In this document: piece by piece, positions 1 through 11,757 of the stretch
How positions within the stretch are numbered: the stretch's first letter is position 1
Layout of the letters: each line of letters starts with the position of its first letter
Assembly (NCBI RefSeq): GCF_003334315.1
Contig: NZ_QOWR01000010.1
DNA from: Escherichia coli
GTDB lineage: Bacteria > Pseudomonadota > Gammaproteobacteria > Enterobacterales > Enterobacteriaceae
Strand: one strand, 5' to 3'
DNA: 64,000 nucleotides
Position numbers and translations under genes: made by a program
Notes under the pieces: generated by a model
Told to the model about the DNA's origin: nothing
What the model saw: only the letters and a program-made list of their open reading frames with translations
Databases searched by the model: none

Positions 1-320
<320 letters not shown>

Positions 321-827: not shown

Positions 828-853
828 CCCGCCGGGAGGCCCGCCCTCCCGCA

Positions 854-915
854 CTGTCATCGAATTCCCGTTAACTCCTCATCTGTTAGTCACTTTTAAT
901 TAACCAAATCGTCAC
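854..915 (+). promoter_or_regulatory. Pho box (PhoB-binding direct repeats) of the phnC promoter
   Basis: ctgtcat at 854 and ctgttagtcacttttaattaaccaaatcgtcac at 883-915 resemble the CTGTCAT-type Pho box repeats, ending about 45 bp upstream of the phnC ATG. The RBS gggagg is at 946-951. Confidence 0.6.
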
Positions 916-959
916 AATAATCCGCCACGATGGAGCCACTTTTTTAGGGAGGCTGCATC

Positions 960-2789: not shown

Positions 2790-2878
2790 ATCGTAGGTCG
2801 GATACATCCGACAATGTGCAGGCGTTGATGCCGGATGCGGTGCAAGCACCTTATCCGGCCTACAGACCGGAGCCAAAC
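2790..2878. repeat. REP element between phnD and phnE
   Basis: gccggatgcggtgcaagcaccttatccggcctaca palindromic REP motif. The 5' extension of ORF 2816..3658 runs through this REP and is not the true start. Confidence 0.8.
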
Positions 2879-3658
2879 ATGCAAACCATCACCATCGCCC
2901 CACCCAAGCGCAGCTGGTTCTCGCTTCTGAGCTGGGCCGTTGTTCTCGCCGTGCTGGTCATCTCGTGGCAGGGCGCGGAAATGGCCCCGCTTACGCAGAT
3001 TAAAGACGGCGGCAACATGGCAACCTTCGCCGCCGACTTCTTCCCGCCCGATTTCAGCCAGTGGCAGGATTACCTCACCGAAATGGCCGTCACGCTGCAA
3101 ATCGCCGTCTGGGGCACCGCGCTGGCGGTGGTTCTCTCCATCCCCTTCGGTCTGATGAGCGCCGAAAACCTGGTGCCGTGGTGGGTTTACCAGCCCGTTC
3201 GCCGCCTGATGGACGCCTGCCGCGCCATTAACGAAATGGTCTTCGCCATGCTGTTCGTGGTCGCCGTCGGTCTCGGCCCGTTCGCTGGCGTGCTGGCGCT
3301 GTTTATCCACACCACCGGCGTGCTCTCCAAGCTGCTTTCCGAAGCGGTGGAAGCGATTGAACCCGGCCCGGTGGAAGGCATTCGCGCCACCGGCGCTAAC
3401 AAGCTCGAAGAGATCCTCTACGGCGTGCTGCCACAGGTGATGCCGCTGCTGATCTCCTACTCCCTCTATCGTTTCGAATCCAACGTCCGCTCGGCGACCG
3501 TCGTCGGCATGGTCGGTGCAGGCGGGATCGGCGTCACCCTGTGGGAAGCGATTCGCGGTTTCCAGTTCCAGCAAACCTGCGCCCTGATGGTGCTCATCAT
3601 CGTCACGGTCAGCCTGCTGGATTTCCTCTCTCAACGGTTGCGTAAGCACTTTATCTGA
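2879..3658 (+). CDS. phnE: Phosphonate ABC transporter permease, intact reading frame
   Basis: Start chosen at ATG 2879 ([25 protein letters not shown]...), downstream of the REP. Continuous ORF to 3658 with hydrophobic membrane-protein character. Confidence 0.85.
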
Positions 3659-3669
3659 TAAGCGAGGCA

Positions 3670-4404
3670 TTGATAGCTATGCACTTGTCTACACATCCGA
3701 CCAGCTACCCAACACGCTATCAGGAGATAGCCGCAAAACTTGAGCAGGAGCTTCGTCAACACTACCGCTGCGGCGACTATCTTCCCGCCGAGCAGCAACT
3801 GGCGGCGCGCTTTGAGGTGAACCGCCACACCCTGCGCCGCGCCATCGACCAGCTGGTGGAAAAAGGCTGGGTACAGCGCCGTCAGGGCGTCGGCGTACTG
3901 GTGCTGATGCGCCCGTTCGATTACCCGCTCAACGCCCAGGCGCGTTTTAGCCAGAACCTGCTGGATCAGGGCAGCCATCTCACCAGCGAAAAACTGCTGT
4001 CTGTGCTGCGCCCGGCCTCCGGTCACGTTGCTGACGCGCTGGGGATTACCGAGGGCGAGAACGTTATCCACCTGCGCACCCTGCGTCGGGTCAACGGCGT
4101 CGCGCTCTGTTTAATCGACCACTACTTTGCGGACCTCGCCCTCTGGCCGACGCTGCAACGCTTCGACAGCGGCTCGCTGCACGATTTTCTGCGCGAGCAA
4201 ACCGGAATTGCGCTGCGCCGCAGCCAGACGCGGATCAGCGCCCGCCGCGCCCAGGCCAAAGAGTGCCAGCGTCTTGAAATCCCGAATATGTCGCCGCTGC
4301 TGTGCGTGCGCACCCTTAACCACCGTGACGGTGAAAGCAGCCCGGCGGAGTACTCCGTCAGCCTGACGCGCGCCGACATGATTGAATTCACTATGGAGCA
4401 CTGA
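3670..4404 (+). CDS. phnF: GntR-family transcriptional regulator of the phn operon
   Basis: 244-aa ORF with an N-terminal HTH region (YLPAEQQLAARFEVNRHTLRRAIDQLVEKGW) and a UTRA-like C-terminus. The true start may be the ATG at 3679. Confidence 0.9.
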   Translation: MIAMHLSTHPTSYPTRYQEIAAKLEQELRQHYRCGDYLPAEQQLAARFEVNRHTLRRAIDQLVEKGWVQRRQGVGVLVLMRPFDYPLNAQARFSQNLLDQGSHLTSEKLLSVLRPASGHVADALGITEGENVIHLRTLRRVNGVALCLIDHYFADLALWPTLQRFDSGSLHDFLREQTGIALRRSQTRISARRAQAKECQRLEIPNMSPLLCVRTLNHRDGESSPAEYSVSLTRADMIEFTMEH

Positions 4405-4857
4405 ATGCACGCAGATACCGCGACCCGCCAGCACTGGATGTCCGTACTGGCGCACAGCCAACCGGCTGAACTGGCAGCCCGCCTGAACGCGCTGAACATC
4501 ACCGCCGACTATGAAGTGATCCGCACCGCCGAAACCGGCCTGGTGCAGATTCAGGCGCGAATGGGCGGTACCGGCGAACGCTTTTTTGCCGGCGACGCCA
4601 CGCTGACCCGCGCCGCCGTACGCCTGACTGACGGCACCCTCGGCTACAGCTGGGTGCTGGGGCGCGACAAACAGCACGCCGAACGCTGCGCGCTGATTGA
4701 CGCGTTGATGCAGCAATCTCGCCATTTTCAAAACTTATCAGAAACCCTTATTGCCCCGCTGGACGCTGACCGTATGGCACGCATTGCCGCACGCCAGGCC
4801 GAAGTGAACGCCAGCCGGGTCGACTTCTTTACGATGGTTCGCGGAGACAACGCATGA
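4405..4857 (+). CDS. phnG: C-P lyase complex subunit PhnG
   Basis: 150 aa, [19 protein letters not shown]... Overlaps the phnH start. Confidence 0.9.
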
Positions 4858-5438
4858 CCCTGGAAACCGCTTTTATGCTTCCCGTGCAGGATGCCCAGCA
4901 CAGTTTTCGTCGCCTGTTAAAAGCCATGAGCGAGCCGGGCGTGATTGTCGCCCTGCATCAGCTCAAGCGCGGCTGGCAGCCGCTGAATATCGCCACCACC
5001 AGCGTGCTGCTGACGCTGGCCGATAACGACACGCCGGTGTGGCTTGCCACGCCATTAAGTAACGATATCGTCAGCCAGAGCCTGCGTTTTCATACCAACG
5101 CGCCGCTGGTTAGCCAGCCGGAACAGGCGACCTTCGCGGTGACGGATGAGGCGATTTCCAGCGAACAGCTCAACGCCCTTTCCACCGGCACCGCCGTTGC
5201 GCCGGAAGCGGGCGCGACGCTGATTTTACAGGTCGCCAGCCTGAGCGGCGGGCGTATGTTGCGCCTCACCGGCGCGGGCATTGCCGAAGAACGAATGATC
5301 GCCCCGCAGCTGCCGGAATGCATTCTGCACGAACTCACCGAGCGCCCGCACCCGTTCCCGCTCGGCATCGACCTGATCCTGACCTGCGGTGAGCGCCTGC
5401 TGGCTATCCCGCGAACCACTCATGTGGAGGTGTGCTGA
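4854..5438 (+). CDS. phnH: C-P lyase complex subunit PhnH
   Basis: 194 aa. ATGA overlap with the phnG stop and a 1-nt overlap with the phnI ATG at 5438. Confidence 0.9.
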
Positions 5439-6502
5439 TGTACGTTGCCGTGAAAGGGGGCGAAAAGGCGATCGACGCCGCCCACGCCCTGCAAGAGAGC
5501 CGACGCCGGGGCGATACCGATTTGCCTGAACTGAGCGTCGCCCAGATTGAACAGCAGCTTAATCTCGCGGTGGATCGCGTGATGACCGAAGGCGGCATTG
5601 CCGACCGCGAACTGGCGGCGCTGGCGCTGAAACAGGCCAGCGGCGATAACGTTGAAGCGATTTTCCTGCTGCGCGCCTACCGCACCACGCTGGCAAAGCT
5701 GGCGGTAAGCGAGCCGCTCGACACCACCGGGATGCGTCTCGAACGGCGTATTTCGGCGGTTTATAAAGACATTCCCGGCGGCCAGCTGCTTGGCCCAACC
5801 TACGACTACACCCATCGCCTGCTCGATTTCACCCTGCTGGCAAACGGTGAAGCGCCGACGCTGACCACCGCCGACAGCGAACAACAGCCGTCGCCGCACG
5901 TTTTCAGCCTGCTGGCGCGTCAGGGGCTGGCGAAGTTTGAAGAAGATAGCGGCGCACAGCCGGATGACATCACCCACACGCCGCCGGTTTACCCCTGCTC
6001 ACGTTCTTCCCGTTTGCAGCAGTTAATGCGCGGGGACGAAGGCTATTTGCTGGCGCTGGCCTACTCTACCCAGCGCGGTTACGGGCGCAACCACCCGTTC
6101 GCGGGCGAGATCCGCAGTGGTTACATCGACGTGTCGATTGTGCCCGAAGAGCTGGGATTTGCGGTAAACGTCGGCGAACTGCTGATGACCGAGTGTGAAA
6201 TGGTCAACGGTTTTATCGATCCGCCGGATGAACCACCGCATTTTACACGCGGCTACGGGCTGGTGTTCGGCATGAGCGAGCGCAAAGCGATGGCAATGGC
6301 GCTAGTCGATCGTGCGTTGCAGGCCCCGGAGTACGGCGAGCACGCGACAGGCCCGGCGCAGGATGAAGAGTTCGTGCTGGCACATGCCGACAATGTCGAA
6401 GCCGCAGGCTTTGTCTCGCACCTCAAACTCCCCCACTACGTCGATTTCCAGGCCGAACTGGAGCTACTCAAACGTCTGCAACAGGAGCAGAACCATGGCT
6501 AA
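5438..6502 (+). CDS. phnI: C-P lyase complex subunit PhnI (ribosyl-triphosphate-forming nucleosidase)
   Basis: ATG at 5438 ([16 protein letters not shown]...), 354 aa. The ORF-track start at 5432 is an upstream GTG in the same frame. Confidence 0.9.
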   Translation: MYVAVKGGEKAIDAAHALQESRRRGDTDLPELSVAQIEQQLNLAVDRVMTEGGIADRELAALALKQASGDNVEAIFLLRAYRTTLAKLAVSEPLDTTGMRLERRISAVYKDIPGGQLLGPTYDYTHRLLDFTLLANGEAPTLTTADSEQQPSPHVFSLLARQGLAKFEEDSGAQPDDITHTPPVYPCSRSSRLQQLMRGDEGYLLALAYSTQRGYGRNHPFAGEIRSGYIDVSIVPEELGFAVNVGELLMTECEMVNGFIDPPDEPPHFTRGYGLVFGMSERKAMAMALVDRALQAPEYGEHATGPAQDEEFVLAHADNVEAAGFVSHLKLPHYVDFQAELELLKRLQQEQNHG

Positions 6503-7340
6503 TCTGAGCGGCTACAACTTTGCCTACCTCGACGAGCAGACCAAACGCATGATCCGCCGCGCCATCTTAAAAGCGGTAGCGATCCCCGGTTATCAGGTAC
6601 CTTTTGGCGGGCGCGAGATGCCAATGCCATACGGCTGGGGAACCGGCGGCATACAGCTCACCGCCAGCGTGATTGGCGAAAGCGACGTGCTGAAGGTGAT
6701 TGACCAGGGCGCAGACGACACCACCAACGCCGTGTCGATCCGCAACTTCTTTAAGCGCGTGACCGGGGTAAACACCACTGAACGTACGGACGATGCGACG
6801 CTTATCCAGACGCGCCATCGCATCCCCGAAACGCCGCTGACCGAAGATCAGATAGTTATTTTCCAGGTGCCAATCCCCGAACCGCTGCGCTTTATCGAGC
6901 CGCGCGAAACGGAAACCCGCACCATGCACGCGCTGGAAGAGTACGGCGTGATGCAGGTGAAACTGTATGAAGATATCGCCCGCTTCGGTCATATCGCCAC
7001 TACCTACGCCTATCCGGTGAAGGTGAACGGGCGCTACGTAATGGACCCGTCGCCGATCCCGAAATTCGATAACCCGAAAATGGACATGATGCCCGCCCTG
7101 CAACTGTTCGGCGCGGGGCGCGAGAAGCGCATCTATGCGGTGCCGCCGTTTACCCGCGTGGAAAGCCTCGATTTCGACGATCACCCGTTCACCGTTCAGC
7201 AGTGGGATGAGCCGTGCGCCATCTGCGGATCGACCCACAGCTATCTTGATGAAGTGGTGCTGGATGACGCCGGAAACCGCATGTTTGTCTGCTCCGATAC
7301 CGATTATTGCCGCCAACAGAGCGAGGCAAAAAACCAATGA
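6495..7340 (+). CDS. phnJ: C-P lyase catalytic subunit PhnJ
   Basis: ATG at 6495 (MANLSGYNFAYLDEQTKRMIRR...), 281 aa, with the C-terminal Cys cluster CAICGS...VCSDTDYC. The longer ORF from 6312 is an out-of-context 5' extension overlapping phnI. Confidence 0.9.
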   Translation: MANLSGYNFAYLDEQTKRMIRRAILKAVAIPGYQVPFGGREMPMPYGWGTGGIQLTASVIGESDVLKVIDQGADDTTNAVSIRNFFKRVTGVNTTERTDDATLIQTRHRIPETPLTEDQIVIFQVPIPEPLRFIEPRETETRTMHALEEYGVMQVKLYEDIARFGHIATTYAYPVKVNGRYVMDPSPIPKFDNPKMDMMPALQLFGAGREKRIYAVPPFTRVESLDFDDHPFTVQQWDEPCAICGSTHSYLDEVVLDDAGNRMFVCSDTDYCRQQSEAKNQ

Positions 7341-8095
7341 ATCAACCGTTACTTTCGGTCAATAACCTGACCCACCTTTACGCGCCGGGCAAAGGCTTTA
7401 GCGATGTCTCTTTTGATTTATGGCCGGGGGAAGTGCTGGGCATTGTCGGGGAGTCCGGCTCCGGGAAGACCACGCTGCTGAAATCAATCTCCGCGCGCCT
7501 GACGCCGCAGCAGGGGGAAATTCACTATGAAAACCGTTCCCTCTATGGCATGAGCGAGGCCGACCGCCGTCGCCTGCTGCGCACCGAATGGGGCGTGGTG
7601 CATCAGCATCCGCTCGACGGCCTGCGCCGCCAGGTCTCGGCAGGCGGCAATATCGGCGAGCGGCTGATGGCGACCGGGGCGCGTCATTACGGCGATATTC
7701 GCGCCACCGCGCAGAAGTGGCTGGAAGAGGTGGAAATTCCCGCCAACCGGATCGACGACCTGCCGACCACCTTTTCCGGTGGCATGCAGCAGCGTTTGCA
7801 GATTGCCCGCAATCTGGTGACGCATCCGAAGCTGGTGTTTATGGACGAGCCAACCGGCGGGCTGGATGTGTCGGTGCAGGCACGCCTGCTCGATCTGCTG
7901 CGCGGCCTGGTGGTGGAGCTGAACCTGGCGGTGGTGATTGTCACCCATGATTTAGGCGTTGCCCGCCTGCTGGCGGACCGTTTGCTGGTGATGAAACAGG
8001 GGCAAGTGGTGGAGAGTGGGTTAACCGACCGCGTGCTCGACGACCCGCACCATCCGTACACCCAGTTGCTGGTGTCATCGGTTTTGCAGAATTGA
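7337..8095 (+). CDS. phnK: C-P lyase ABC-ATPase-like subunit PhnK
   Basis: [15 protein letters not shown]..., Walker [10 protein letters not shown], 252 aa. ATGA overlap with phnJ. Confidence 0.9.
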
Positions 8096-8200
<105 letters not shown>

Positions 8201-8205
8201 GAAAA

Positions 8206-8886
8206 ATGATTAACGTACAAAACGTCAGTAAAACCTTCATCCTGCACCAGCAAAACGGCGTGCGCCTGCCCGTCCTCAACCGCGCCTCGCTCATCGTCAA
8301 CGCGGGCGAATGCGTGGTGCTCCACGGCCATTCCGGCAGCGGCAAATCAACCCTGCTGCGCTCGCTGTACGCCAACTATCTGCCCGACGAAGGGCAAATC
8401 CAGATTAAACACGGTGACGAATGGGTAGACCTGGTCACCGCGCCAGCCCGCAAAGTGGTGGAGATCCGCAAAACCACCGTCGGCTGGGTGAGCCAGTTTC
8501 TGCGCGTTATCCCGCGCATTTCGGCGCTGGAAGTAGTAATGCAGCCGCTGCTCGATACCGGCGTACCGCGTGAAGCCTGCGCCGCTAAAGCCGCCCGATT
8601 ACTGACGCGCCTGAACGTGCCTGAACGCCTGTGGCACCTTGCACCATCGACCTTCTCCGGCGGCGAACAGCAGCGCGTCAACATCGCCCGCGGCTTTATC
8701 GTCGACTACCCGATTCTGCTGCTCGACGAACCTACCGCCTCGCTGGACGCCAAAAACAGCGCCGCGGTGGTGGAACTGATTCACGAAGCCAAAGTCCGTG
8801 GCGCAGCCATCGTCGGCATCTTCCATGACGAAGCTGTACGTAATGACGTTGCCGACCGCCTGCACCCAATGGGAGCCTCTTCATGA
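8206..8886 (+). CDS. phnL: C-P lyase ABC-ATPase-like subunit PhnL
   Basis: ATG at 8206 ([18 protein letters not shown]...), Walker [10 protein letters not shown], 226 aa. The upstream part of ORF 8092.. reads through the REP and is spurious. Confidence 0.9.
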
Positions 8887-10019
8887 TTATCAATAACGTC
8901 AAATTGGTGCTGGAAAACGAAGTGGTACACGGTTCACTGGAGGTGCAGGACGGCGAAATCCGCGCCTTTGCCGAAAGCCAGAGCCGCCTGCCGGAGGCGA
9001 TGGACGGCGAAGGCGGCTGGCTGCTGCCGGGGCTGATTGAGCTGCATACCGATAATCTGGATAAATTCTTCACCCCGCGCCCGAAAGTTGACTGGCCTGC
9101 CCACTCGGCGATGAGCAGCCACGACGCGCTGATGGTGGCGAGCGGCATCACCACCGTACTGGATGCCGTGGCAATTGGCGACGTGCGCGACGGCGGCGAT
9201 CGGCTGGAGAATCTTGAGAAGATGATCAACGCCATCGAAGAGACGCAGAAACGCGGCGTCAACCGCGCCGAGCACCGTCTGCATCTGCGCTGCGAACTGC
9301 CGCATCACACCACGCTGCCGCTGTTTGAAAAACTGGTGCAGCGCGAGCCGGTGACGCTGGTGTCGCTGATGGACCACTCGCCGGGCCAGCGCCAGTTCGC
9401 TAACCGCGAGAAGTACCGTGAATATTATCAGGGCAAATACTCCCTCACCGATGCGCAGATGCAGCAGTACGAAGAAGAGCAACTGGCGCTTGCCGCACGC
9501 TGGTCACAGCCTAATCGCGAATCCATCGCCGCAATGTGCCGCGCAAGACAAATTGCCCTCGCCAGCCACGATGACGCCACGCATGCCCACGTTGCCGAAT
9601 CACACCAGCTTGGCAGCGTCATCGCCGAATTTCCCACCACGTTTGAAGCAGCGGAAGCCTCGCGCAAGCATGGCATGAACGTGCTGATGGGCGCGCCAAA
9701 TATCGTGCGCGGCGGCTCGCACTCCGGCAACGTGGCGGCCAGTGAACTGGCGCAGCTTGGCCTGCTGGATATACTCTCTTCCGACTACTACCCCGCCAGC
9801 CTGCTGGATGCGGCGTTCCGCGTCGCCGATGACGAGAGCAACCGCTTTACGCTACCGCAGGCGGTGAAGCTGGTGACCAAAAATCCGGCCCAGGCGCTGA
9901 ATCTTCAGGATCGCGGGGTGATTGGCGAGGGCAAACGCGCCGACCTGGTGCTGGCGCATCGCAAGGGCAATCACATTCATATCGACCACGTCTGGCGTCA
10001 GGGGAAAAGGGTGTTCTGA
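8883..10019 (+). CDS. phnM: Amidohydrolase-family C-P lyase component PhnM
   Basis: 378 aa. ATGA overlap with phnL. Confidence 0.9.
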
Positions 10020-10576
10020 TGACGGGAAAACTGATTTGGTTAATGGGGCCGTCCGGCTCCGGGAAAGACAGCCTGCTGGCGGAACTCCGCCTGCGGGAAC
10101 AGACGCAGCTACTGGTGGCGCATCGCTACATCACGCGCGATGCCAGCGCCGGAAGTGAAAACCATATCGCCCTGAGTGAGCGGGAGTTTTTTTCCCGCGC
10201 GGGGCAAAATCTGCTGGCCTTAAGCTGGCACGCTAACGGTCTGTATTATGGCGTCGGCGTCGAGATTGACCTCTGGCTGCACGCCGGATTCGACGTGGTG
10301 GTCAACGGTTCACGCGCGCATTTGCCGCAGGCACGGGCGCGCTATCAATCGGCGCTGCTGCCCATTTGCTTACAGGTGTCGCCGGAGATCCTGCGCCAGC
10401 GCCTGGAAAACCGTGGCCGTGAAAACGCCAGTGAAATTAACGCCCGCCTGGCGCGCGCCGCCCGCTATACTCCACAGGATTGCCATACGCTCAACAATGA
10501 CGGCAGCCTGCGCCAGTCGGTCGACACGCTGCTGACGCTGATTCATCAGAAGGAGAAACACCATGCCTGCTTGTGA
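10019..10576 (+). CDS. phnN: Ribose 1,5-bisphosphate phosphokinase PhnN
   Basis: 185 aa with P-loop GPSGSGKDS. Confidence 0.9.
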
Positions 10577-10997
10577 GCTTCGCCCGGCCACGCAGTACGA
10601 CACCGACGCGGTTTACGCGCTGATTTGCGAGCTAAAACAGGCGGAGTTTGACCACCACGCGTTTCGCGTGGGCTTTAACGCCAACCTGCGCGACCCGAAC
10701 ATGCGCTACCATCTGGCGCTGCTGGATGGCGAAGTTGTCGGCATGATCGGCCTGCATTTGCAGTTTCATCTGCATCATGTCAACTGGATCGGTGAAATTC
10801 AGGAACTGGTGGTGATGCCGCAGGCGCGCGGCCTGAACGTCGGTAGCAAGTTGCTGGCGTGGGCAGAAGAAGAAGCCCGCCAGGCCGGGGCCGAAATGAC
10901 CGAGCTTTCGACCAACGTGAAGCGCCACGACGCACACCGTTTCTATCTGCGCGAAGGCTACGAGCAGAGCCACTTCCGCTTCACGAAGGCGCTGTAA
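10563..10997 (+). CDS. phnO: GNAT aminoalkylphosphonate N-acetyltransferase PhnO
   Basis: 144 aa. 14-nt overlap with phnN. Confidence 0.9.
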
Positions 10998-10998
10998 C

Positions 10999-11757
10999 AT
11001 GAGCCTGACCCTCACGCTCACCGGCACCGGCGGCGCACAGGGCGTTCCGGCATGGGGCTGCGAGTGTGCGGCCTGCGCCAGAGCGCGGCGCTCACCGCAG
11101 TATCGCCGCCAACCGTGCAGCGGCGTAGTGAAGTTTAACGAGGCGATCACCCTGATCGACGCCGGGCTGCACGATCTCGCCGATCGCTGGTCGCCCGGAT
11201 CGTTCCAGCAGTTTTTGCTGACGCATTATCATATGGATCACGTCCAGGGGCTGTTTCCGCTGCGCTGGGGCGTTGGCGATCCGATCCCGGTTTACGGCCC
11301 GCCGGATGACCAGGGCTGCGACGATCTGTTTAAACATCCGGGCCTGCTTGATTTCAGCCACACGGTGGAACCGTTTGTGGTGTTTGATTTGCAGGGGTTA
11401 CAGGTCACGCCCCTGCCGCTCAACCACTCAAAACTGACCTTCGGTTATCTGCTGGAAACGGCACACAGCCGGGTGGCGTGGCTGTCTGACACCGCAGGCT
11501 TGCCAGAAAAAACGCTGAAATTTTTACGCAATAATCAGCCGCAGGTAATGGTGATGGATTGCAGTCACCCGCCGCGCGCGGATGCACCGCGTAATCACTG
11601 TGATTTAAATACCGTGCTTGCGCTGAATCAGGTTATCCGCTCGCCACGGGTGATTCTGACCCATATCAGCCACCAGTTTGATGCGTGGCTGATGGAAAAC
11701 GCACTACCGTCAGGGTTTGAGGTGGGGTTTGATGGGATGGAGATTGGGGTGGCGTGA
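10999..11757 (+). CDS. phnP: Metallo-beta-lactamase-fold phosphodiesterase PhnP
   Basis: 252 aa with the HxHxDH motif ([11 protein letters not shown]). Last gene of the operon. Confidence 0.9.

Follow-up and report, generated by a model that had tools for sequence, protein, structure and literature searches.

An in-frame phnE allele with two repeat units at the established slippage site of the Escherichia coli phosphonate operon

The gene phnE encodes the membrane permease of PhnCDE, an ABC importer for phosphonate and phosphate, and the copy found in the 64,000-nucleotide stretch of Escherichia coli DNA analysed here (hereafter the window) raises the question of whether it is a functional or a cryptic allele, and whether the short repeat inside it can act as a reversible switch. 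Makino et al. in 1991 reportedly distinguished the functional phn(EcoB)/phn(EcoK+) allele from phn(EcoK0), the cryptic allele found in K-12, and Iqbal et al. in 2004 are said to have described reversible phase variation in E. coli K-12 phnE, with re-insertion of the unit seen too and with an abstract that reportedly presents the OFF form as apparently unique to K-12. The allele in the window is a rediscovery of this textbook polymorphism, which is already known. In published work, K-12 PhnCDE is cryptic through an 8-bp insertion in phnE and phnE+ revertants of K-12 arise via spontaneous slippage; in one revertant that was sequenced, the gene was restored by deletion of 5′-GCTGGCGT at approximately 407-414 of the phnE ORF (PMC6469041). 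Reversion has been described as high-frequency slippage between direct repeats (PMC4759930), the difference between cryptic and functional phn is restated in PMC6469041 and PMC7566553, the second of which also backs the slipped-strand reading of the tract, and the names phn(EcoB), phn(EcoK0) and phn(EcoK+) are those of PMC3463581. PhnCDE has been linked to Pi uptake as well (PMC6469041).

On the plus strand of the window, phnE occupies positions 2879..3658 as an intact ORF of 259 codons, and its translation gives 259 amino acids with no internal stop; the ORF listed at 2816-3658 is the same frame begun at a GTG further upstream. The whole protein scored 309.7 bits (cut-off 216.7) against NCBIfam TIGR01097, the equivalog 'phosphonate ABC transporter, permease protein PhnE', and covered profile positions 8-251 of 252, which places it within that family. 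The original prediction had described phnE as a single continuous permease ORF, and the stop-free frame at 2879-3658 together with the TIGR01097 match bears this out. Strains BE2-5 and Z1323PEC0011 have an annotated phnE with which the gene is colinear. A search of solved structures returned MetI as the nearest match to PhnE (E = 6e-6), and no solved PhnE structure was found in that search. The 90%-identity protein cluster that contains PhnE also lists 241-aa PhnF members (P0021, P0022, P0024 and P0029), and these entries are probably a database clustering artefact without bearing on the phn locus.

Within the gene, attention had been drawn to the string cgctggcgtgctggcgctg (window 3283-3301), which was said to hold two adjacent near-identical 8-mers. 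Both are present at 3284-3299 on the plus strand, with GCTGGCGT at 3284-3291 (gene positions 406-413), the unit that is doubled in K-12, followed by GCTGGCGC at 3292-3299 (gene positions 414-421), a terminal imperfect unit. Together the two units (gene positions 406-421) encode Ala136-Gly-Val-Leu-Ala-Leu141, and from gene position 406 the tract can be written as (GCTGGCGT)n-GCTGGCGC, with n = 1 in the window and n = 2 in K-12. In MG1655 (NC_000913.3), where phnE is annotated as the pseudogene phnE1 (b4583), the tract has three units, one additional GCTGGCGT, against two in the window.

The phnE alignments took in MG1655, TUM23341, REL606 (E. coli B) and BE2-5, a near-identical strain. Between the window and MG1655 the sole indel is one 8-column gap at the tract in an alignment of 788 columns, and it corresponds to one GCTGGCGT, as expected if MG1655 is frameshifted by an extra 8-bp copy; the possibility that K-12 differs elsewhere than at the repeat falls away, with no other indel found. 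Counting of the units, which had been proposed as a check against MG1655 and E. coli B, gave three in MG1655 and two in REL606, as in the window, and BE2-5 likewise has two. The MG1655 frame runs for 140 native residues and 49 out-of-frame residues before a stop, and the truncation removes the EAA-type loop and the C-terminal membrane segments of PhnE. When one unit was taken out of MG1655 in silico, the result was a 259-aa protein that differs from that of the window at V28I and L40Q. The window has the unit number of the functional two-unit allele, and apart from the 8-bp unit nothing that separates it from K-12 disrupts the frame.

Outside the tract, phnE in the window has 18 substitutions relative to K-12 and 19 relative to REL606, and over the first 25 kb the window shows 99.9% identity to several isolates of 4.6-4.75 Mb from dog, pangolin, fish, pig and human. 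The 18 further substitutions, and the finding that the nearest complete genomes are 99.9% identical animal and human isolates, bear out the original prediction: the source is clearly not MG1655. The allele resembles the functional phn(EcoB)/phn(EcoK+) allele in having two units at 406-421, an in-frame 259-aa PhnE and a 14-gene operon, and its PhnE differs from that of REL606 at 2 of 259 residues (V28I and L40Q), but it is a separate nucleotide haplotype and carries the lineage-specific L40Q. In the Salmonella and Pseudocitrobacter orthologues the peptide is preserved as AGV(L/M)AL, whereas the repeat in the DNA is degenerate. Since the peptide is the same in these genera, the in-frame state of phnE is ancestral, and the near-perfect tandem 8-mer is a feature of E. 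coli codon usage.

The genes around phnE, all on the plus strand, are in keeping with a working operon. Its partners phnC (960-1748), which encodes the ATPase, and phnD (1773-2789), which encodes the periplasmic binding protein and matches PDB 3p7i with E = 2.3e-205, are both intact, and from 3679 to 11757 the regulator phnF and the C-P lyase pathway genes phnGHIJKLMNOP form 11 full-length ORFs, each with a single terminal stop. From phnC through phnP, 14 of 14 genes are open, with an ATG start and a terminal stop only, and the order phnC-phnD-phnE, then phnF and the C-P lyase genes, is colinear with Z1323PEC0011. The yjdN-phnC intergenic region (828..959, plus strand), which contains the phn operon promoter, is identical to MG1655 at 131 of 132 bases, and from about position 883 it has CTGTTAGTCAC...CGTCAC, a putative Pho-box-like element of the kind reportedly described by Makino et al. 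in 1991. Given the 14 open genes and the 131/132 match in the promoter region, it is reasonable to regard the genotype of the source strain as Phn+, as judged from sequence, and the strain would then be expected to grow on phosphonates. We consider it very likely (probability about 0.93) that phnE in the window is the ancestral ON form, in frame with two units at a known slippage site, within a complete phnCDEFGHIJKLMNOP operon.

Other repeats and RNAs are found in the window. The yjdM-yjdN intergenic region (window 44-320) holds three tandem 100-bp units that match Rfam naRNA4/CssrE, a REP325-type array, and this array is a second tandem-repeat copy-number polymorphism, adjoining the phn operon. 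One close relative (L016) has one unit more in the array, as a 100-base shift of the window leaves 0 mismatches, and three others (L006, L013 and L015) share the six fixed-offset mismatches of L016 and so probably have the extra 100-bp unit. Six apparent SNPs at window 37-205 relative to these relatives were rejected as such, as they disappear with the 100-base shift (0 mismatches) and reflect one repeat unit instead. The gltP-yjcO intergenic region (window 29668-29928, minus strand) has two naRNA4-like units of approximately 113 bp; Z1323PEC0011 has three, which is its only length difference from the window over 39 kb. The SECIS element within fdhF (window 27147-27201; 87.1 bits) is ordinary and in an expected place, as is the sRNA sraL (window 47698-47838; 153.3 bits) for an E. 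coli region.

An intact frame does not by itself settle the phenotype, and a different explanation is that PhnE is intact yet the strain is Phn-negative or altered in transport, with two substitutions impairing or retuning PhnCDE. Compared with the closest complete genomes, the lineage-specific nonsynonymous changes are PhnE L40Q (window 2997) and PhnD N133K (window 2171). Z1323PEC0011, the closest complete genome, shows 13 fixed-offset differences from the window in the first 25 kb; six of them come from the 100-bp repeat-unit shift, and of the 7 real ones the two within phn genes are both nonsynonymous and both in transporter genes, as this explanation would have it. It also gains from the conservation of position 40 of PhnE, which is Leu in all 10 other members of the aligned cluster, one Salmonella and one Pseudocitrobacter sequence among them. 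The exact PhnE and PhnD proteins of the window are, however, both found on approximately 20 public contigs, and one draft genome is identical to the window across 6.6 kb, which shows that L40Q and N133K are real variants and not sequencing errors, and that the lineage persists with both. In addition, L40 comes after the first hydrophobic segment and before the conserved core, and in the 3p7i alignment N133 (mature N107) precedes the S127-T128-S129 loop by 20 residues. This is the ligand-binding loop of PhnD, with residue roles as reportedly given by Alicea 2011. With no sign of function loss in either protein, we regard an effect of these substitutions on transport as very improbable, and the functional ON allele remains our reading of the locus.

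For the tract itself, the slipped-strand model has a simple frame logic, because the unit length cannot be divided by 3. As the DNA is replicated, the nascent strand could re-pair one 8-bp unit out of register at GCTGGCGT-GCTGGCGC. Gain of a unit would give three units, 8 additional bp and a frameshift after residue 140, so that PhnE would lack the EAA coupling loop along with the transmembrane helices of its C terminus and no phosphonate would be taken up, the 'cryptic' state of K-12, while loss of a unit from a three-unit tract would give two units again. The tract, the unit and the slipped-strand logic are the same as in the phase variation of K-12 phnE reported by Iqbal et al. in 2004. We infer that the two-unit tract of the window can gain a unit at an appreciable rate, which makes switching in its lineage a potential property.

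Seen alone, the two-unit tract is unexceptional. Its exact repeat is only 7 bp long. When neighbouring 8-mers that differ by one base at most were counted, the window gave 28 positions (19 loci), and 30 shuffles of the 64-kb window that preserve dinucleotides gave 30.3 ± 7.2 positions and 17.9 ± 3.0 loci, so that a two-unit repeat shows no excess over chance in 64 kb. A likeness of GCTGGCGT to the Chi site (GCTGGTGG) was also considered and dropped, since the two mismatches mean that it is not Chi. With the tract statistics at chance level, the case stands on comparative and published evidence. The same chance level also fits an alternative in which the tract is stable, ordinary coding sequence here and the lesion in K-12 arose once, by tandem duplication, and has since been passed on vertically, with no switch in the wild; this is partly compatible with the window carrying an ON allele. 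The repeated laboratory reversion of K-12 by loss of exactly one GCTGGCGT (PMC6469041, PMC4759930) argues against such stability.

The natural distribution of unit number bears on this more directly. Across 5,426 complete E. coli genomes, we used short queries with E-value thresholds that pass one unit number only, the thresholds for one- and five-unit alleles tolerating approximately 6 flank mismatches. Three units were found in 997 genomes (999 records) and four units in 12 genomes, and neither one-unit nor five-unit alleles were found (0 of 5,426 complete genomes in each case); for the approximately 4,380 remaining genomes with full-length phnE we infer two units. Of 60 rows sampled evenly from the three-unit set, approximately 37 were from human, livestock, pet, food or water and approximately 19 were K-12 derivatives, and RefSeq labels three-unit phnE alleles 'frameshifted' in natural isolates. 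Frameshifted three-unit phnE is common beyond laboratory K-12, for example at loci L003, L007 and L008. About 18% of complete genomes have the K-12 OFF allele, and most of these are natural isolates, which is a modest addition to what was known. This differs from the K-12 phase-variation work in that the OFF form occurs in 997 of 5,426 complete genomes with about 60% of the sample from hosts or the environment, and in the window's lineage, in contrast to K-12, only the ON form was seen. An OFF allele at about 18% also qualifies the statement that the vast majority of isolates have a functional phnE (PMC6469041).

Comparison of individual alleles showed that unit number varies between otherwise identical genes. 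VR50, with four units, is identical to ETEC1732, with two, outside the tract, and both are 1 nt from MG1655, which has three; bovine strain 35, with three units, and REL606, with two, likewise differ in the tract alone. Unit number has thus changed independently on two haplotypes or more, as expected from the slipped-strand model. A single, stably inherited duplication is hard to reconcile with an independent gain from two to three units on the REL606-type haplotype in strain 35, or with two- and four-unit states on one identical haplotype and four units in 12 genomes. The original prediction had named the repeat as a plausible slip-strand site, and it is upheld by the literature and by natural two-, three- and four-unit alleles on identical haplotypes.

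Most of the survey nevertheless has the look of inheritance, which speaks for the stable-sequence alternative. The three-unit records have one exact local haplotype in 991 of 999 cases, these being identical to the K-12 72-mer, and the K-12 gene haplotype (no more than 1 mismatch) is nearly always three-unit, with two units in only 5 genomes, one of them an MG1655 derivative. No OFF variant was seen on the window's own haplotype, where unit number was constant: all 130 records that share 99% identity or more with phnE of the window were two-unit, and 0 of the 999 three-unit records matched the window-type 72-mer exactly. Set against the independent changes on other haplotypes and the laboratory reversions, we consider it rather unlikely that the tract is simply stable sequence, and a two-unit ON allele at a slippage-prone site is the reading we retain. 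The natural distribution of unit number looks mostly clonal and inherited rather than flickering.

Known contingency loci offer a comparison. As in the tetra- and pentanucleotide loci of Haemophilus and Neisseria, the number of intragenic tandem repeats in phnE sets the reading frame, but phnE has 2 to 4 units rather than tens and its last unit is imperfect, and its distribution looks largely clonal, unlike the rapidly flickering classical loci. It is a tentative possibility, and one we hold with some doubt, that the OFF allele has become fixed in a large natural lineage in which loss of PhnCDE is maintained and possibly selected, with window-type lineages staying ON, so that the tract would serve in nature as a contingency locus. 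If true, it would be a contingency locus for phosphorus scavenging or for toxic phosphonate uptake, and rare reversion and occasional expansion to four units would accompany the natural OFF lineage.

The allele in the window shows that the source is an E. coli other than K-12 whose phosphonate operon is wild-type; this aids strain typing, and a two-unit phnE helps to predict growth on phosphonates and Pi uptake through PhnCDE. The allele regarded as 'cryptic in K-12' is carried by about one fifth of complete E. coli genomes, and independent changes in unit number have occurred on different backgrounds. Metabolic models and phenotype predictions for E. coli should therefore read the phnE unit number without assuming a functional gene.
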